Made by a program: the position numbers and the translations under genes. This document shows, in pieces, positions 9,080-16,314 of a stretch of 47,017 nt of DNA. The notes beneath the pieces are model-generated. The model saw only the letters and a program-made list of their open reading frames with translations, was not told the origin of the DNA and searched no databases. Source of the DNA: Candidatus Aminicenantes bacterium (GTDB taxonomy: Bacteria > Acidobacteriota > Aminicenantia > Aminicenantales > Aminicenantaceae); the NCBI GenBank assembly GCA_023133225.1, contig JAGLWV010000116.1:1-47017 (forward strand), read 5' to 3'. The first letter of the stretch is position 1. The number at the start of each line of letters is the position of its first letter.

Positions 9080-9562
9080 TTATTCCAGGATTTCAGCGGC
9101 TTTTTTGGAGAGGGGCATTCTTCTTTTTATAAACTCAGAGGAATCCGGCGTTAAGAGTTCTTTTATTTCAAGGTATTTTCTTTTGCCCTTTCCTGTGATC
9201 TTCTTCTCTTTTACCTTATCCCATGGGATAAATTTCATATGAAACAGAATTCCATCAGAGCCTATATAACCATTCCATCTGGGGGTAAAGACTAATAAAA
9301 AGATGAGGATCAAAAGCCTGAAGTAGCCGGAGTTGGATTCTGGTTCTGAAAAGATCTGATACATGCACCACAGGAAATAAGCAAACAGGACAGGAAACAC
9401 AAACCAGTTAAAAGGAAAATTAAAATTGTAGAATGAAGACCAGCTTGCCTGTATCTTCCCCAGGGATTTCTTTTTAATCTTTAAGCTCCACAGGTTAAAA
9501 AGAAAAAAGGCAAAGGCCAGGAAGAATAAGACAAGGTAAGCGGCAATAATAAAAGCACTCAT
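9080..9562 (-). CDS. Small integral membrane protein (about 3 TM helices plus a basic C-terminal domain), function unknown
   Basis: 160-aa ORF. Its ATG overlaps the upstream stop by 4 nt (ATGA), which implies translational coupling with the CxxC lipoprotein gene. It has three hydrophobic segments followed by a K-rich soluble tail. Confidence 0.6.
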   Translation of the reverse strand: MSAFIIAAYLVLFFLAFAFFLFNLWSLKIKKKSLGKIQASWSSFYNFNFPFNWFVFPVLFAYFLWCMYQIFSEPESNSGYFRLLILIFLLVFTPRWNGYIGSDGILFHMKFIPWDKVKEKKITGKGKRKYLEIKELLTPDSSEFIKRRMPLSKKAAEILE

Positions 9563-10095
9563 TTATCCCCCTCCCTCAATTTTCCTGAATCATTAAAAAA
9601 ATTGAGTATCTCCTTTTTTTGCTTCTCGTTTAAAGGGAAAACATATTTTTTTAAAATTCTATTCTCCCGCTCAAAAAGTAGAATAGCTGCACCCTTCTTA
9701 GAAAATATCTTAAAGCCATGGGAATGGTCAAGGACAATCGGACATGTAATGTTATTAGCCTTGAAAAATCCTCTGGACTTCTTCTCAACAATCCTGCGGT
9801 AGACCTCTCTCCTTTCTTTTTCCTCAGGATTGTCATAAACGATAATTCCCCAGACCATATTCTCTCGAGACGGATAAGGCAAAAATTGGTAAAAATCAAG
9901 AAAAGAATTCAGACAGGGAGAGCATATAAGATTATCATATTTGACTATGAAAAGGACAAGCTTATCGGACGGGAGGAATTCTAAGGGTCTATTTTGCAGG
10001 CCAGTTGTGTTTCCTAAGCAACTGAAAAAAAGTAAAATTAACACCGTACTAAAACAACGGTGAATTCGAAATTTCTTTTCATAAAATTGGCTCAT
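9559..10095 (-). CDS. TlpA/redoxin-like thiol-disulfide oxidoreductase lipoprotein (CxxC)
   Basis: 178-aa ORF with a lipobox-like signal (VLILLFFSC). It shows thioredoxin-fold hallmarks: a beta-strand followed by CSPC (LVLFIVKYDNLICSPC), then CPIVLD ... AAILLFERENRILKKY, resembling the TlpA/ResA pattern. Confidence 0.6.
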   Translation of the reverse strand: MSQFYEKKFRIHRCFSTVLILLFFSCLGNTTGLQNRPLEFLPSDKLVLFIVKYDNLICSPCLNSFLDFYQFLPYPSRENMVWGIIVYDNPEEKERREVYRRIVEKKSRGFFKANNITCPIVLDHSHGFKIFSKKGAAILLFERENRILKKYVFPLNEKQKKEILNFFNDSGKLREGDK

Positions 10096-10108
10096 GGCCC
10101 GGCTCCAT

Positions 10109-11128
10109 TTATCTATTGATATAATTCACCTTGTATTTTTTTAAAGTTACTCCTTCATTGGCTCTTGAATAAAGATAATCCTGACCATCTATGTATATGC
10201 AGTGACTCCAGTCAGGGAGGGTAAAAGTGGCTAACAGCTTGCCTTCGGAGCTGAGAACATACACATCCTGGCTGGGATTTTTCGAAAAACTTCCACCAAG
10301 GACAAACACATGTCCTTTGCTGTTCAGAGCAATATCTTTATAGGCGAACCCAGAGGGAAGCAAAAAATTATGCACTTTTTTCTTTTTGACTTTTTTTATG
10401 TCCAGTAACCCCTTTGACCATATCTTTTTCCCCTCAGGATTTATTTTTTCGATCTTATCCTGGTGACAGTAAGCAAGATAGAGATAGCCCTGAGGATCAA
10501 ATTGAATCTCTACCGTATCCATCATCAAAGGAGTTTTTTTATCTGCATATTCGATCTCACGGGTAATCTCTCCTTTTGAATTATAAATAAAAATCTTTCT
10601 CCCCTTCGTGAAGTCCATTGAGAGTGTGGAGACCGCAATCTCAGAATCAGAAATGACCTTAAAATCGCTTACAGGAATAAGAATCGGTATTTTGTTTTTG
10701 TAAGTCAGATCTTTGTCAAAAACTTGAATTCCAAAAATATTTTGATCTGAGACATAGAGAAAATGCTCCGAGCTGTCTATAAATCTGGGAGCCAAAAATT
10801 CACCCGGACCCCGTCCCTTTCGGCCGGTCTTTTTAACAAGGTTTCCCCGTTCATCAAAAATTTTTATCGAATAATCCATGGCATCCGTGACATAAATACG
10901 TTTACTGGAATCTGCAACAATCCCCACCAACATGAACAGATCATCATCATCCAAACTGCCGATGGAAAGGACTTCCTCCAGAGAGATTTTAAGACGGTCT
11001 TTTCCCCACATGAACACAACAAGCGAACAAAGAACACCTATCAGAAGTAAAGCTTCAAACAGGCGTATTATGCCCCTTCTTCGAGCTCTGGTGAATGTAT
11101 TAAGCGATCTTTTCCTTAAAAGTTTCAT
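10109..11128 (-). CDS. Six-bladed beta-propeller protein (NHL/TolB-like), N-terminal membrane anchor
   Basis: The ORF is open from a GTG at 11146. The ATG at 11128 is preceded by AAGGAGGG. It has an N-terminal TM helix followed by about six repeats of the type hydrophobic-YV-S/T-D ... I.VFD..G (RIYVTDAMDYSIKIFDERGN, FLYVSDQNIFGIQVFDKD, KIFIYNSKGE, YLYLAYCHQDKIEKINPEGK, HVFVLGG...VYVLSSEGK). Confidence 0.7.
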   Translation of the reverse strand: MKLLRKRSLNTFTRARRRGIIRLFEALLLIGVLCSLVVFMWGKDRLKISLEEVLSIGSLDDDDLFMLVGIVADSSKRIYVTDAMDYSIKIFDERGNLVKKTGRKGRGPGEFLAPRFIDSSEHFLYVSDQNIFGIQVFDKDLTYKNKIPILIPVSDFKVISDSEIAVSTLSMDFTKGRKIFIYNSKGEITREIEYADKKTPLMMDTVEIQFDPQGYLYLAYCHQDKIEKINPEGKKIWSKGLLDIKKVKKKKVHNFLLPSGFAYKDIALNSKGHVFVLGGSFSKNPSQDVYVLSSEGKLLATFTLPDWSHCIYIDGQDYLYSRANEGVTLKKYKVNYINR

Positions 11129-11150
11129 GCTCCACCCTCCTTTCACTTAT

Positions 11151-11182
11151 CCTGAATTATTCATAAAATATGCCGACACTTT
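11151..11182. repeat. 32-nt short dispersed repeat (second copy at 38888-38919)
   Basis: cctgaattattcataaaatatgccgacacttt matches cctgaattatttataaaaactgccgacacctt at 28/32 positions. Both copies are intergenic. Confidence 0.7.
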
Positions 11183-11365
11183 CATTTATCTTCAATAATA
11201 TCAATTGGCTGTATTGCGTTCTATAATATATGACGGCTCAAATGGAATTTTTTCTCAAAGAGAGGGACATTCCCCAAAGTACCAGCCTTTGAATATGATC
11301 TCGTGAAGGATGGCACTTTAAGGGAATGTCCCTTCCTACTTGAACTTTTCCTGATGAAAACGTCC

Positions 11366-11635
11366 CTATTTTTCCGGGAGGTGCTTCTCGACATACTTTT
11401 TGCAAAAAACCCAGCCGTAAGCACAATAAATTACTTTTTGAGGATCCAGAATAATAAGTATCAGGTTGTCCCCCAGACACTCCATGAAGGCCTCCCCGCA
11501 ACTTCTATATTCTTCTTCTCCTTCTTCTGCAGTGAGAAGAACTAAATCTACGCTCATCAAAAGCATAAAAAAAGCTAACAGGAGTGCCACTTTTTTCGTG
11601 TTCTTTTGAATTTTTAAAACCACTTTTACCTCCAT
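11366..11635 (-). CDS. Secreted/anchored 4-Cys mini-protein, paralog B
   Basis: 89-aa ORF; an alternative GTG four codons downstream is preceded by GGAGG. It has a hydrophobic N-terminal signal/anchor (KKVALLLAFFMLLMSVDLVLL). It shares two motifs with the upstream mini-protein: SCGEAFMECLGD and CAYGWVFCKKYV. Confidence 0.6.
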   Translation of the reverse strand: MEVKVVLKIQKNTKKVALLLAFFMLLMSVDLVLLTAEEGEEEYRSCGEAFMECLGDNLILIILDPQKVIYCAYGWVFCKKYVEKHLPEK

Positions 11636-11678
11636 TTGTTCATAAGTTACGTTTAGTCTCTTTTCCTATAAACCTTCA

Positions 11679-11990
11679 TTAAATCTTCACATATCTCATA
11701 CAAAAATCAAAACCAATCGCGCAGCCACTCATTGCAGCTACTCCAACTGCAATCCCGGCTGCAGCTCCAGTAAATATCGCTACCAATCCGCCAATTAGTC
11801 CTCCAGCAAATCCTGCAATACCGGCTAAAACCGCGCTAACGCCCGCATCGATCGTGCATTCAACTAAAGCATCTAAACATGGATTTTTTCCTGCTGACAG
11901 GTGATGGGGAGCTACAAAGAGGAAGAAAACCAATACTGCTAAAGCTGCAGCCATAATTCTCTTTCCCTTGTTTCTTTTTAAATCTTTCAT
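11679..11990 (-). CDS. Secreted 4-Cys glycine-zipper mini-protein, paralog A (microcin/class II bacteriocin-like composition)
   Basis: I chose the ATG at 11990 because AAGGAGG lies 6 nt upstream and the longer ORF to 12047 would swallow the sigma54 promoter. The 103-aa product has a Sec signal (MKDLKRNKGKRIMAAALAVLVFFLFVAPHHLSA). The mature part of about 70 aa contains PCLDALVEC, a 44-aa Gly/Ala zipper (AGIAGFAGGLIGGLVAIFTGAAAGIAVGVAAMSG) and CAIGFDFCMRYV. Confidence 0.65.
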   Translation of the reverse strand: MKDLKRNKGKRIMAAALAVLVFFLFVAPHHLSAGKNPCLDALVECTIDAGVSAVLAGIAGFAGGLIGGLVAIFTGAAAGIAVGVAAMSGCAIGFDFCMRYVKI

Positions 11991-12015
11991 TTTTAACCTC
12001 CTTTCATCTTTAAGA

Positions 12016-12030
12016 GCAAATTCTGTGCCA
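12016..12030 (-). promoter_or_regulatory. Sigma54 (RpoN) -24/-12 promoter
   Basis: The minus strand reads TGGCAC-AGAAT-TTGC(T), an exact match to TGGCAC-N5-TTGC. The C of TTGC is 26 nt upstream of the ATG at 11990. Caveat: the predicted transcript start near 12004 leaves only a leader of about 14 nt that begins at the RBS. Confidence 0.6.
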
Positions 12031-12056
12031 TCATGAAATATAAACATTTATCAATT

Positions 12057-12069
12057 TAAGTTATTGATA
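12057..12069 (-). promoter_or_regulatory. IHF-like site between the enhancer dyad and the sigma54 promoter
   Basis: The minus strand reads TATCAATAACTTA, which fits WATCAANNNNTTR. It is embedded in an A+T-rich dyad (TTATCAAT/ATTGATAA). Confidence 0.3.
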
Positions 12070-12184
12070 TAAATAAAGATAGAAAATCTCTGTGCTTGCT
12101 AAAAATACTTTGAATTAAAAGCGGATGTCACACTTTTCCCTGAGCTTTCTCTTTCTTTAATTATTACAATAACTTAGGAGAGGT

Positions 12185-12206
12185 TGTCACGGCACAAAGT
12201 GTGACA
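12185..12206. promoter_or_regulatory. Candidate enhancer-binding-protein site (UAS): TGTCAC-N10-GTGACA
   Basis: A perfect 6-bp dyad with a 10-nt spacer (TGT-N10-ACA class) lies about 165 nt upstream of the -24 element. A related half-site ATGTCACACTTT (12125-12136) is the exact inverted repeat of AAAGTGTGACAT (12196-12207). Confidence 0.45.
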
Positions 12207-12335
12207 TTTAGAACTTGTGCCCTCTTTAACGAAAAATGAAATACGTGCCCCAATTTTCCATCATGGGATTCGATGCAAAAAATGAGCACCTGGTTTTTTA
12301 ATTAAAGGGAACTAAATGAATATCCTACGAGCGGA

Positions 12336-14415: not shown

Positions 14416-16314
14416 TTATTCTATCCCTAACTCATCAATGATAAGTTTTACATAATTTTCCCTGGGAGTTATCAAGGAATAAAAATCATCTTTGATCTTC
14501 TTCACATATTCCTCAAAAAAGGTGAAATCATCCTGGTTGCTCCAGTTTTCCGTACTTAATTTTTCAAGAACCTCCTTGATGATATCCTTGTTCACAATCT
14601 CTATAGTGCATTCGGGAAGAGTGCCGGATTTTTCCTCTATCATCTTGCTGCTTCTCGAAAAAATATCTCGCAGGTCCTCTTGATATCTTATAATTTCCTG
14701 CTTCACAAAAAATTGATCTTTTGGAGATTCTGTCTGAGAAAGCTTTGTGTAAAGCTTCTTTCCTTCCTCTAAGTGACCGCTCAAGGTAGAAATGAGGCGT
14801 TCACTATCCAGGACAATTCTCTCCTTATTCTGATAATAGATAATGCCATTCTCATCATCTGGGGGATCGGTTTTTCGGTAATCCTTCAGAGGTTCATAAA
14901 CTTCCATGGATTCTTCGATTCCCGCTTCCTCTTTTTCTTCTGTTACCGGCATTTCCTCGGGTGGCTCTATAGTTATTGTATCTGATGTCTCATCCATCGC
15001 TTCCTGAAAACTGACTCCCTCTGCACCTTCCTCTTCTCCCTTTACTTCTTCCTTCTCAACTTCTTCTTTCTTCGGTAGTGTGCCCTTCAGTAAATCTTCA
15101 GCCTTGATTCTGATCGTCTCATCCATCGCTTCCAAAGGACTGATCTCTTCCTCGATTTTAAATTCCTCTTTTTCCGGTTCCTCCTCAGGTTTCTCTGTAT
15201 CCACCGTCATTGTCGTCTCATCCATCGCTTCCTGAAAACTGACTCCCTTTGCACCTTCCTCTTCTCCCTTTACTTCTTCCTTCTCAACTTCTTCTTCCTT
15301 TGGTAGTGTGCCCCTCATTAAATCTTCAGCTTTGATTTTAATCGTCTCGTCCATCGCTTCTAATGGACTGATCTCTTCCTCGACTATAAATTCCTCTTTT
15401 TCTGACACTTCCTTAGGTTCCTCTGCAGCCATAGTCTTTGTCGTCTCGTCCATTGCTTCTGAAAGGCTGACTTCTCCCTCCATTTTCTCCTCTGCTTCTG
15501 GAGGCTTCTCCTCTAGAGCCTCTTCCATTTCTTTCTCGGATAGCGGGGCTTCTATGTCTTCATCCTTTTCTTCCATCTCAAAATGAACATCATCACTTCC
15601 GGCTCTTTCTTCCTCGCTGATTCCAACTGTTTCTTCAGTCACCCCTGAAATAGGTGTGACTTCCTCTTTAGTTTCCTCTCCTATTGCTGTTTCCTCTCCT
15701 ACAATTTCAATTTCATCCTCTATACCAAACACATCCTTAATTTTTTTTACCTTTGCCAGGTCTTGCCCAAGGTCAACTCTCACCTCTTCTTGTTCAGCAC
15801 TTTCTGGAATCCAAGCCGGAGTCTCTGATTTTTCTTCAACTTTTTTTTTAATAGAGGATATTTTACTATCGGCCTCTTGATTGAATTCCTCCAACTTCTG
15901 GCTCAACTCGCTCACTTTCTTGAGTTCTTCGAGTGTTTGTCCAGTGATTGTCTTGAATTCTCTTTGGAATTGATTGGCCTTGTTGAGAAATTCATCTATA
16001 TTGCTTTTAAGATCTTCCCTTTTACGCTCATACTCGGCAATCAAATTCATGTAATTTACCCGGGATTCTTCATCCCCGGATTCCTTCTGCACTGGGTCTA
16101 TCTCCTTTATTTCTTCCTTTACTTCTTCCTTTATTTCTTTCTTTATTTCTTCCTTCTTTTCTTTCTTCTTTTCTTCCTTTCCCACCTGTTTGCCCTTTTC
16201 TTCAATTTCCTTCTCTATTTCCTCTTCTTTCCTGGCCAGTGCATCCTTTAATTTATTTTCAATATCCTCAATACTAAGGGGAGCTTTTTTCTTACTATTT
16301 TTATCTTTTGGCAT
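14416..16314 (-). CDS. Highly acidic Glu/Lys-rich repeat protein with a conserved-looking C-terminal globular domain, function unknown
   Basis: 632-aa ORF with a GAAGGAG RBS and its own sigma70-type promoter. It has an N-terminal K/E coiled-coil-like region, five copies of the [LQ]EAMDET motif within 76-aa tandem repeats, and a non-repetitive C-terminal region of about 170 aa. Confidence 0.7.
   Translation of the reverse strand: MPKDKNSKKKAPLSIEDIENKLKDALARKEEEIEKEIEEKGKQVGKEEKKKEKKEEIKKEIKEEVKEEIKEIDPVQKESGDEESRVNYMNLIAEYERKREDLKSNIDEFLNKANQFQREFKTITGQTLEELKKVSELSQKLEEFNQEADSKISSIKKKVEEKSETPAWIPESAEQEEVRVDLGQDLAKVKKIKDVFGIEDEIEIVGEETAIGEETKEEVTPISGVTEETVGISEEERAGSDDVHFEMEEKDEDIEAPLSEKEMEEALEEKPPEAEEKMEGEVSLSEAMDETTKTMAAEEPKEVSEKEEFIVEEEISPLEAMDETIKIKAEDLMRGTLPKEEEVEKEEVKGEEEGAKGVSFQEAMDETTMTVDTEKPEEEPEKEEFKIEEEISPLEAMDETIRIKAEDLLKGTLPKKEEVEKEEVKGEEEGAEGVSFQEAMDETSDTITIEPPEEMPVTEEKEEAGIEESMEVYEPLKDYRKTDPPDDENGIIYYQNKERIVLDSERLISTLSGHLEEGKKLYTKLSQTESPKDQFFVKQEIIRYQEDLRDIFSRSSKMIEEKSGTLPECTIEIVNKDIIKEVLEKLSTENWSNQDDFTFFEEYVKKIKDDFYSLITPRENYVKLIIDELGIE
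14990..15482. repeat. Intragenic 228-nt (76-aa) tandem repeat, about 2.2 copies
   Basis: Copies start at 14990, 15218 and 15446 (tcatccatcgcttcctgaaaactgactccc...). Copies 1 and 2 are near identical. Each unit contains two EAMDET-encoding sub-motifs. Confidence 0.85.

Follow-up and report, generated by a model that had tools for sequence, protein, structure and literature searches.

A sigma54 operon for predicted disulfide-stapled hairpin peptides in the class Aminicenantia

We identified a previously undescribed operon, found throughout the uncultured bacterial class Aminicenantia, that encodes two small exported peptides predicted to form hairpins and sharing the cysteine spacing of the glycocin bacteriocins. 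The operon also encodes a beta-propeller and, in most loci, a CxxC protein that is a candidate thioredoxin-like helper. It was first noticed in a 47,017-nucleotide stretch of a Candidatus Aminicenantes metagenome-assembled genome (GCA_023133225.1, contig JAGLWV010000116.1; hereafter the window), where a preliminary description made from the sequence alone reported five tightly packed minus-strand genes behind a sigma54 promoter. That observation was confirmed by our analyses. Its interpretation, as a bacteriocin-type or signalling-peptide locus, was only partly supported.

All five minus-strand open reading frames are present in the window. Mini-protein A (11679-11990) is 103 amino acids long, with an ATG 6 nt after AGGAGG; a longer frame reaching 12047 would swallow the promoter. 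Mini-protein B (11366-11623, 85 amino acids) has a GTG start after GGAGG. These are followed by genes for a 339 amino acid six-bladed propeller (10109-11128), a 178 amino acid protein with the CxxC motif CSPC (9559-10095) and a 160 amino acid membrane protein (9080-9562). A 13-nt gap (10096-10108) separates the propeller and CxxC genes, and a 4-nt ATGA overlap (9559-9562) joins the last two. The reported A+T-richness proved not to be anomalous: the locus genes have GC contents of 0.36-0.44 against 0.487 for the flanking hutU, but this is only about one standard deviation below the mean of the window's genes (0.427 +/- 0.040, minimum 0.34) and GC3 is unremarkable, so the locus is not a compositional island.

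To define the conserved unit, we compared 64 Aminicenantes loci. Of 60 loci with enough upstream DNA, 53 have two twin-Cx6C open reading frames directly upstream of the propeller gene on the same strand, and most of the rest carry motif variants. A CxxC gene follows in 41 of 55 loci, whereas the 160 amino acid membrane protein follows in only 11 of 55. The conserved core is peptide A, peptide B and the propeller. The unit is a core of three or four genes, and the fifth gene, the membrane protein, is accessory. One closed genome has three paralogous loci, and different small membrane proteins close the different locus classes. The preliminary description had named loss of neighbourhood across related genomes, or mini-genes without homologs or a coding signature, as grounds for rejection; we found instead that the neighbours are conserved across the class and that the mini-proteins have homologs with invariant cysteines and signal peptides under purifying selection.

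The promoter region is also conserved. An exact sigma54 -24/-12 element, TGGCAC-N5-TTGC, lies at 12030-12016 on the minus strand, with an expected transcript start near 12004, and TGG[CT]A[CT]-N5-TTGC is found at the same distance from the A start codon in 41 of 53 two-peptide loci. Further upstream, the dyad TGTCACA-CTT-TGTGCCg (12206-12190, minus strand) is a candidate binding site for a sigma54 enhancer-binding protein. A 17-mer TGKCACA-N3-TGTGMCA with at most two mismatches occurs in 22 of 48 sigma54-bearing loci, against 0.1 expected from shuffles, and 18 of these lie 171-177 nt upstream of the -24 element; the window copy has one mismatch and sits at -176. Consistent with this arrangement, one locus of the set (L066) has a sigma54 activator without a sensor domain immediately upstream (Sigma54_activat, 1.9e-60). 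We also identified a long imperfect RNA hairpin in the gap between B and the propeller gene (11263-11333, minus strand; minimum free energy z-score -4.15) that may act as an attenuator or stabiliser. It is kept in a second locus (L007, z -4.5) but is not general across 54 loci (mean z -0.5) and is specific to this clade.

The A precursor has a Sec-type signal (residues 1-33, ...HLSA|G) and a 70 amino acid mature region with cysteines at positions 38, 45, 90 and 97. The 44 amino acid Gly/Ala-rich loop between C45 and C90 holds two GxxxGxxxG runs (G60/64/68 and G75/79/83). AF2 predicts a helix at 37-67, a turn at 68 and a helix at 69-100, at pLDDT 64. Positions 38 and 97, and 45 and 90, both sum to 135, which fits nested pairing across an antiparallel hairpin. 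The B precursor has a signal peptide, an acidic N-terminus and cysteines at positions 42, 49, 67 and 74, with a 17 amino acid loop; it has 13 relatives among 1.84 billion representative proteins, all with the same motif. The proposed paralogy of A and B is weak pairwise (13 amino acids, E=8e-4) but firm at the family level (hhalign probability 99.2%, E=2e-19). The glycine zipper, which the preliminary description noted in A, is not the defining feature of the peptides but a lineage-specific loop expansion: loops are 21-23 amino acids in 38 of 54 loci (22 in 34), and lengths range from 13 to 44. The true signature is a Sec signal followed by a twin C-x6-C...C-x6-C helical hairpin, in which the four cysteines, an Ala at C1+3, an Asp at C2+3, a Gly at C3+3, an aromatic residue at C3+4 and a Tyr at C4+3 are invariant.

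The propeller is exported and probably signal-anchored. It matches Pfam DUF5128 (E=2e-10), and its profile matches NHL propellers in the PDB (down to 3e-27) and the Bacteroides DUF5128 structure 4raa (2e-7). We found more than 335 homologs, all from Aminicenantes-type contigs. The CxxC protein (C58-S-P-C61) is extracytoplasmic and a distant TlpA/ResA/StoA-like thioredoxin-fold candidate: its family profile matches StoA (3erw) at E=0.003 with the CxxC and the FPIxLD motif in register, AhpC-TSA is hit by 2 of 32 members, and NCBIfam StoA_CxxC scores 0.046. C58, C61 and D123 are invariant. Fold membership nevertheless rests on this weak profile hit, as the AF2 model failed (pLDDT 40). The lipobox cysteine is not conserved in the family, so the earlier designation of this protein as a lipoprotein is not supported. 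The accessory membrane protein has three predicted transmembrane segments, a small C-terminal beta-rich domain and no conserved cysteine; its DUF5673 match (7e-4) is below the cut-off.

We next examined how these genes evolve. Pooled pN/pS is 1.20 for mature A and 0.57 for mature B, but 0.15-0.28 for hutU, the propeller (0.23), the CxxC protein, the membrane protein and both signal peptides (0.25 for that of A). In 16 alleles of A, 24 of 33 signal columns are invariant, compared with 22 of 70 mature columns. One strain (L005) is about 97% identical in the flanks and 100% in the A signal, yet only 40-57% identical (nucleotides) across mature A and 55-72% across the B core, and carries a replaced allele. 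The high value for A could, however, simply reflect near-neutral exchange among Gly, Ala, Val and Ile in a low-complexity loop.

Among characterized systems, the closest are the glycocins (sublancin 168, glycocin F, pallidocin, thermoglycocin). These are helix-loop-helix peptides of about 37-45 amino acids whose two alpha-helices are joined by two nested disulfides, Cys7-Cys30 and Cys14-Cys23, in a C-x6-C...C-x6-C arrangement (PMC12139839), and their clusters carry thioredoxin-like oxidoreductase genes (PMC6405829, PMC12457901). The B loops (13-20 amino acids) overlap the glycocin range, which includes 8 amino acids in thermoglycocin (Cys14 to Cys23, PMC12139839). The sublancin loop is 14 amino acids. 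Paralogous Aminicenantes loci of a second class (class II) carry a GT-A glycosyltransferase next to the peptides, echoing glycocin clusters, though this enzyme resembles GpgS/MGS and not SunS. The differences are considerable: we detected no sequence homology to glycocins, the leader is a Sec signal and not a double-glycine leader, there is no SunT-type ABC/C39 exporter, no glycosyltransferase in the window locus and no fifth (glycosylated) cysteine, the host is a diderm, two paralogous peptides occur per locus, a beta-propeller is always present and control is by sigma54.

Other systems share fewer features. Two-peptide (class IIb) and Sec-dependent class II bacteriocins such as enterocin P likewise have two adjacent small peptide genes in one operon or a Sec signal, a small membrane protein encoded downstream and, as in the window's A, GxxxG motifs; however, they are Gram-positive, cationic and mostly free of disulfides, have specific immunity genes and lack a propeller and a thioredoxin-like gene, and GxxxG is not conserved in our family. 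The preliminary description offered, as a loose precedent, Bacteroidota six-bladed propellers paired with NVEALA-type small proteins. Our propeller does belong to the DUF5128 (BF3164-type) family and is paired with small N-terminally hydrophobic proteins, but the precedent is not borne out for the peptides: there was no NVEALA hit at E<=1 for the window's A and B or for the 24 B-family members (the wider A family was scanned only against NCBIfam), and no literature on such a pairing was found in the library searched. Twin CX9C (CHCH) and twin CX3C (small Tim) proteins of the mitochondrial intermembrane space are also small helix-loop-helix proteins stapled by two disulfides from paired CXnC motifs, are oxidised by a dedicated oxidoreductase (Mia40) in a periplasm-equivalent compartment and include paralogous pairs, such as Tim9/Tim10, that work together. 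The spacing differs (x6 here) and there is no homology, while the loops here are hydrophobic and variable and a propeller partner is present, making the comparison an analogy only. Finally, the methylamine dehydrogenase cluster has the same cast of a small exported cysteine-rich protein (mauA), a periplasmic propeller (mauB), a thioredoxin-like protein (mauD) and a small membrane protein (mauE), but that propeller is seven-bladed, the system carries a TTQ cofactor and its small subunit is conserved and not fast-evolving; we found no sequence similarity and no conserved Trp pair.

Our analyses largely establish a class-wide Aminicenantia operon, switched on by sigma54 and a distal enhancer-binding protein, whose two paralogous Sec-exported products are, after signal cleavage, helix-turn-helix peptides of roughly 40-70 residues with C-x6-C on each helix at the open end and a variable hydrophobic loop at the closed end. 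How it works, including the disulfides, propeller binding and any activity, is inferred. We reason that in the periplasm the CxxC protein would form or proof-read two nested disulfides (C38-C97 and C45-C90 in A, C42-C74 and C49-C67 in B), giving the stapled-hairpin scaffold of glycocins. The conserved cap (CExA[LF]xxC..D ... CxxGYx[FW]Cx[KR]Y) would be the handle recognised by the strictly co-occurring, slowly evolving propeller, which would dock, chaperone or neutralise the peptides at the membrane. The fast-evolving hydrophobic loop would be the business end, expanded in this clade into two GxxxGxxxG arms long enough to span a bilayer.

The reading that we favor, tentatively, is that A and B act together as a two-peptide, membrane- or envelope-active antagonistic (bacteriocin-like) agent, with the small 3' membrane protein as an accessory or self-protection factor. 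The glycocin-type scaffold, fast-evolving cores and paired peptides strengthen this inference. Several findings weaken it. No exporter, lysis gene or outer-membrane component occurs in any locus, so Sec alone would leave the peptides in the periplasm of a diderm, and this reading does not explain their release. The peptides are not cationic (median net charge 0; about -5 for the window's B). The locus is near-universal in the class, unlike typical accessory bacteriocin islands, and is vertically inherited and syntenic next to hutU in lineages whose propellers are only 67% identical. The candidate immunity or partner genes do not co-diversify with the peptides, and no sequence homology to any bacteriocin family was detected.

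The strongest alternative, somewhat less likely in our view, is an endogenous envelope module in which A and B are small periplasmic or inner-membrane subunits or ligands of a propeller-centred complex with a housekeeping or stress-response role, such as membrane homeostasis or chaperoning in the manner of small Tim or CHCH proteins, induced through a PspF-like sigma54 activator. The core, syntenic and vertically inherited locus, the extracytoplasmic location of all products without an export route beyond Sec, the non-cationic and hydrophobic peptides and the ordinary purifying selection on partner genes are consistent with this view, as is the L066 activator, which lacks a sensor domain as PspF does. 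In the window clade, the A loop could form a two-helix transmembrane hairpin with both cysteine motifs on the periplasmic side. In this view the loops vary only because they are weakly constrained. Yet allele replacement in a 97%-identical background and a pN/pS of about 1.2 beside a signal peptide at 0.25 are unusual for subunits of a housekeeping complex, there are multiple diverged paralogous loci per genome, and the variation in loop length is hard to reconcile with a fixed structural interface.

Two further readings are unlikely. A and B could be secreted, pherotype-like signalling peptides sensed by the membrane-anchored propeller: the leader is conserved and the core variable, alleles differ among close strains, expression is tightly regulated, and NHL propellers serve as extracytoplasmic sensor domains elsewhere, for example in PknD. 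However, the propeller has only a short cytoplasmic tail and no signalling domain, no kinase or regulator is linked in most loci, the would-be receptor does not co-vary with the peptide alleles, and the peptides are very hydrophobic with no export route across the outer membrane. Equally, the propeller could be an enzyme, such as a lyase or cyclase as in PAL or glutaminyl cyclase propellers, that modifies the peptides in a RiPP-like maturation to give the active product. Propeller and peptides co-occur strictly, the propeller family has many invariant polar residues (including D82, D85, Y86, R115, D128, H309 and C310), and class II loci replace the CxxC gene with a glycosyltransferase, which suggests that the peptides are substrates of tailoring enzymes. 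Against this, the best sequence matches are to NHL binding modules such as TRIM, Brat and Thin, PAL scores only E=0.09, no metal-binding His cluster is conserved, and no DUF5128 enzyme is known. Least likely is a metal or redox carrier whose cysteines ligate a metal or Fe-S centre and are kept reduced by the CxxC protein: although four cysteines are invariant, TlpA-like proteins are usually reductants, the hosts are anaerobes from anoxic sediment and some loci carry a membrane protein with a 4Fe-4S dicluster domain after the CxxC gene, the i/i+7 spacing on two antiparallel helices matches the nested-disulfide geometry of glycocins (PMC12139839) and not known metal knuckles, class II loci lack the CxxC protein altogether, and no His or Met co-ligands are conserved.

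The Aminicenantia thus carry a genuine, conserved and previously undescribed sigma54-driven peptide locus for which a bacteriocin-like role is plausible but unproven, and for which an endogenous role in the cell envelope is a serious rival.

The five minus-strand ORFs of the locus were confirmed: peptide A at 11679-11990 (103 aa), peptide B at 11366-11623 (85 aa), the propeller at 10109-11128 (339 aa), the CxxC protein at 9559-10095 (178 aa, motif CSPC), and the membrane protein at 9080-9562 (160 aa). The 13-nt gap and the ATGA overlap of the preliminary description are correct. A TGGCAC-N5-TTGC element lies at 12030-12016 and is followed by AGGAGG and then the ATG of A – so the longer ORF reaching 12047 is not the gene – and a dyad, TGTCACA-CTT-TGTGCCg, lies at 12206-12190. 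Gene calls in a Candidatus Aminicenantes MAG (GCA_030640185.1) also give proteins of 103, 85, 339, 178, and 160 aa. The observation on which the preliminary description rests is confirmed.

That description had also judged the locus to be more A+T-rich than its flanks. The locus genes have a GC content of 0.36-0.44, below that of hutU (0.487), but remain within the spread of the window's other genes (0.427 +/- 0.040, minimum 0.34), and GC3 is unremarkable. We therefore rejected horizontal transfer or an AT-rich island as a description of the locus. A strong purine skew seen elsewhere in the composition profile is accounted for by a gene at 14416-16314 (minus strand), which encodes a 632-aa, extremely Glu/Lys-rich acidic protein with no Pfam hit on record and contains, at 14987-15472, a 228-nt (76-aa) unit repeated 2.1 times at 88% identity.

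To establish whether the gene arrangement exceeds chance, we scanned one genome per species and recovered 64 Aminicenantes loci encoding the propeller. Of 60 loci with at least 700 nt upstream, 53 carry two small same-strand ORFs directly upstream that match a strict twin C-x6-C...C-x6-C pattern, and most of the remainder are motif variants or ORFs fused in our ORF calling. The CxxC protein follows the propeller in 41 of 55 loci with enough downstream DNA, whereas the 160-aa membrane protein follows in only 11 of 55. The conserved unit is therefore A, B, and the propeller, usually with the CxxC protein, and the fifth gene is accessory. A closed genome (CP070825) has three paralogous loci, one of which is syntenic with the window, lies next to hutU, and has all five genes. 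Many of the MAG records that carry this Aminicenantes-type locus (L013-L016, L020, L024, and other 'binchicken' MAG loci, numbered here as loci of our set) are titled 'uncultured Eubacteriales' or 'Clostridia'; their propellers are 45-60% identical to the window's, and the titles look like placeholder taxonomy. An exact-pattern scan of metagenome contigs with the conserved leader DNA, using a pattern that carried a clade-specific CT prefix, found no matches, and a protein-based rescan gave only three loci, at least two of them on contigs already in the set. In loci L077 and L081 a 99-aa gene is called in place of the CxxC gene, but a truncation or pseudogene was rejected because the full 178-aa frame is intact.

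A and B share little in pairwise comparison, but their family profiles align at 99.2% probability with E=2e-19. Both have Sec-type signals with a basic n-region, a hydrophobic core, and an AxA-like end. The mature parts start 1-5 residues before the first cysteine in most family members (the window's B carries a 9-residue acidic extension) and end 4-8 residues after the last. The C-x6-C...C-x6-C motif is invariant in 54 A and 54 B sequences, and the positions that are invariant or near-invariant across these sequences are the four Cys, Ala at C1+3, Asp at C2+3, Gly at C3+3, an aromatic at C3+4 and at C4-1, and Tyr at C4+3.

The loop between the motifs is hydrophobic and variable. In A it is 21-23 aa in 38 of 54 loci (22 aa in 34), with other lengths of 29, 30, 37, and 38 aa and a single case of 44 aa; in B it is 13-20 aa. 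The 44-aa glycine zipper highlighted in the preliminary description is therefore a clade-specific expansion, which in the window forms two GxxxGxxxG arms (G60/64/68 and G75/79/83), and is not the family signature: most family members have 22-aa loops without such runs. AF2 with 16 close homologs predicts helix 37-67, a turn at G68, and helix 69-100, with a mean pLDDT of 64. In this model C38 and C97, like C45 and C90, are in register and symmetric about the turn, which fits nested pairing.

We found no described family for these peptides. Pfam and NCBIfam gave no consistent hit for the A or B families, though the 24 A-family members examined were scanned only against NCBIfam. PADLOC defence models gave no hits, and the PDB yielded no match. 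The NVEALA small proteins that the preliminary description offered as a loose precedent were not recovered: PF14055 gave no hit at E<=1 for the window's A and B or for the 24 B-family members. A Foldseek search with the A model found nothing significant, the best hit (E=1.5, to hydrophobic hairpins of the SmhB/AhlB pore toxins) being treated as noise. An exhaustive HMMER search of 1.84 billion representatives with B found only 13 relatives, all with the same motif, and A has 16 word-index relatives. The family appears confined to this lineage. Literature searches for DUF5128/NVEALA, for Aminicenantes with bacteriocin, and for the Cx6C motif found nothing relevant.

The propeller is a DUF5128/NHL six-bladed propeller: Pfam PF17170 scores 2e-10 (40.7 bits against a cut-off of 22.9), and three or four repeat stretches match TRIM/Thin NHL domains. 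Its N-terminus is long, basic, and hydrophobic, consistent with a signal anchor. The CxxC family has invariant C58, C61, and D123. Its profile matches the TlpA-like StoA (3erw) at E=0.003, with the CxxC and the FPIxLD motif in register, but this is modest support for a thioredoxin fold, accompanied by only weak Pfam and NCBIfam hits, and the usual cis-Pro is not evident in the alignment. An AF2 model built with six homologs gave a secondary-structure order that is compatible with a thioredoxin fold, though at a pLDDT of 40 it was unusable, and the protein remains a thioredoxin-fold candidate. The preliminary description had called it a lipoprotein. The window has LFFSC, but that cysteine is absent in most of the 32 family members, and so the term is not supported. 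The membrane protein has three hydrophobic segments and a small C-terminal domain (DUF5673 at 7e-4, below the cut-off). It has no conserved cysteine, so it is not a DsbB/CcdA-type redox partner, and there is no DsbB-like partner in the locus. In four class I loci – those with the sigma54 promoter and the CxxC gene, here L025 (6687-8033), L026, L035, and L046 – the gene after CxxC encodes a protein of about 404-451 aa with three N-terminal TM segments (the L046 copy is cut by masked sequence). In L025, the copy scanned against Pfam, it has a 4Fe-4S dicluster domain and may be an electron-transfer partner for the CxxC protein.

We next examined the regulation of the operon. TGG[CT]A[CT]-N5-TTGC sits at a constant distance upstream of the A start codon in 41 of 53 loci and is followed by a strongly conserved AAGGAGGT ribosome-binding site; the window's element is an exact match to TGGCAC-N5-TTGC. 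A palindrome, TGKCACA-N3-TGTGMCA with at most two mismatches, occurs in 22 of 48 such loci, where shuffles give 0.1, and 18 of these lie 171-177 nt upstream of the -24 element. In locus L066 a sigma54 enhancer-binding protein without an N-terminal sensor domain, a PspF-like architecture, lies immediately upstream of the operon (L066 1106-2119, Sigma54_activat 1.9e-60). L063, a second lineage, shows the homologous C-terminal fragment in the same position (L063 91-336), although the corresponding activator of the window's genome was not identified. The sigma54 claim is thus supported by phylogenetic footprinting rather than by transcript data. An imperfect RNA hairpin of roughly 30 bp (z = -4.15) lies at 11263-11333 (minus strand), in the 220-nt gap between B and the propeller gene, and may attenuate read-through or stabilise the A-B message. 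It is conserved in the close relative L007, but we rejected a conserved attenuator as a family-wide feature. Rfam gave no hits in the window.

Within the window's clade (8 strains or alleles), pooled pN/pS is 1.20 for mature A and 0.57 for mature B, 0.25 and 0.28 for their respective signal peptides, and 0.15-0.23 for hutU, the propeller, the CxxC protein, and the membrane protein, at similar pS. Part of the A value reflects exchange among Gly/Ala/Val/Ile, which may be nearly neutral. In 16 alleles of A, 24 of 33 signal columns are invariant against 22 of 70 mature columns. The region coding for the A signal peptide (11892-11990), which is 100% nucleotide-identical over 11909-11968 among three strains, is more conserved than the mature part, the reverse of the usual pattern. 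Strain L005 is about 97% identical to the window through hutU and 100% through the A signal, but only 40-57% identical across mature A and 55-72% across the B core, and returns to 92-97% afterwards: the peptide cores have been replaced as cassettes. We considered that L005's divergent A allele was shared with the distant L008 lineage (trans-specific polymorphism), but identity is 0.40, against 0.46 to the window allele, and this was rejected. In other clades, at propeller identity of 0.9 or more, the mature peptides are 0.73-0.89 identical. A further small, variable intergenic segment lies at 12205-12324, between hutU and the upstream activator site, and is only 43-55% identical to strain L007 although both flanks are above 90%.

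The twin Cx6C helical hairpin is the hallmark of glycocins, whose core peptides have two alpha-helices bridged by two nested disulfides (C-x6-C...C-x6-C) and whose clusters encode thioredoxin-like and DsbB-like proteins beside a SunS-type glycosyltransferase and a SunT ABC/C39 exporter, with double-glycine leaders (PMC6405829, PMC12457901). The present peptides share the scaffold spacing and have a candidate thioredoxin-like neighbour, but fail the other defining features. The A and B family HMMs score SunA and GccF (approximate sequences) no better than Cys-preserving shuffles, and the B profile finds no glycocin chain in the PDB at E<=10. The N-termini are Sec-type signals rather than double-glycine leaders, no ABC or C39 gene occurs in any locus, no SunS/GccA-type or other glycosyltransferase occurs in the locus or the window, and there is no fifth cysteine. 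The peptides are therefore not glycocins, but they may work like them.

The loci that lack both the sigma54 promoter and the CxxC gene (class II: A loop 38 aa, B loop 20 aa) add a parallel. Wherever the upstream DNA is available, these paralogous loci carry a 407-aa GT-A glycosyltransferase directly upstream of A (L009 3740-4963, L010 4497-5012, L012 2568-3791, L018 2691-3914, L020 2627-3838, L024 2773-4002), and this includes both class II paralogs of the one closed genome. The enzyme is closest to glucosyl-3-phosphoglycerate and mannosylglycerate synthases (GpgS/MGS) and has no hit to SunS-type structures, and its link to the peptides rests on conserved adjacency only. The class II A peptides have an invariant Gly-Asn at the predicted hairpin tip. 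In several class II loci (L009 7071-7328, and also L012, L017, and L018) an 85-aa protein with two TM segments and a highly charged tail follows the propeller, with a sub-threshold match to holin superfamily III (E=7e-5, 23 bits against a cut-off of 28).

Our analyses establish the gene set and its conservation, the promoter and enhancer architecture, the peptide framework, and the difference in rate between the peptide cores and their neighbours. By contrast, transcription from the promoter, nested disulfides made by the CxxC protein, binding of the conserved cap by the propeller, the variable loop as the active tip, and joint action of A and B are inferred. The interpretation offered in the preliminary description is partly supported, in that this is a real and undescribed secreted-peptide system whose function is unproven. 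We tentatively favour an antagonistic, bacteriocin-like role on the basis of the scaffold, the paired peptides, the conserved leader with a variable core, the allele replacement, the multiple paralogous loci, and the terminal small membrane proteins. The main rival, which we regard as doubtful but not far behind, is an endogenous envelope module, favoured by the absence of any route across the outer membrane, the non-cationic peptides, the vertical syntenic inheritance, the partner genes that do not co-diversify with the peptides, and a PspF-like activator. Signalling, enzymatic tailoring by the propeller, and metal binding are minor alternatives.

The system lies closest to glycocin-type stapled hairpins but differs in export, partners, regulation, and host. 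A bolder possibility, which we consider unlikely on present evidence, is that it is the founding example of a distinct, unrecognised class of Sec-routed, glycocin-fold hairpin peptides in a diderm candidate lineage, always made in pairs and always partnered with a DUF5128/NHL beta-propeller – which would be the first function assigned to that large 'unknown' propeller family. In this view there would be two tailoring flavours: class I, as here, using a thioredoxin-like oxidoreductase under sigma54 control, and class II using a non-SunS glycosyltransferase that may glycosylate the invariant Gly-Asn at the hairpin tip. The peptides are short enough to synthesise, and the central claims of nested disulfides, propeller binding, and membrane or antibacterial activity are thus directly testable.

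If the favoured reading is right, it extends the stapled-hairpin (glycocin-type) peptide scaffold from a handful of Firmicutes into an uncultured, sediment-dwelling diderm class, with a different export and partner logic. It would also give a first testable role, peptide binding, to DUF5128 propellers and supply a well-defined sigma54 enhancer and promoter pair for a lineage with no genetics. Even if the function is endogenous, this is a class-defining envelope module that no database currently names.
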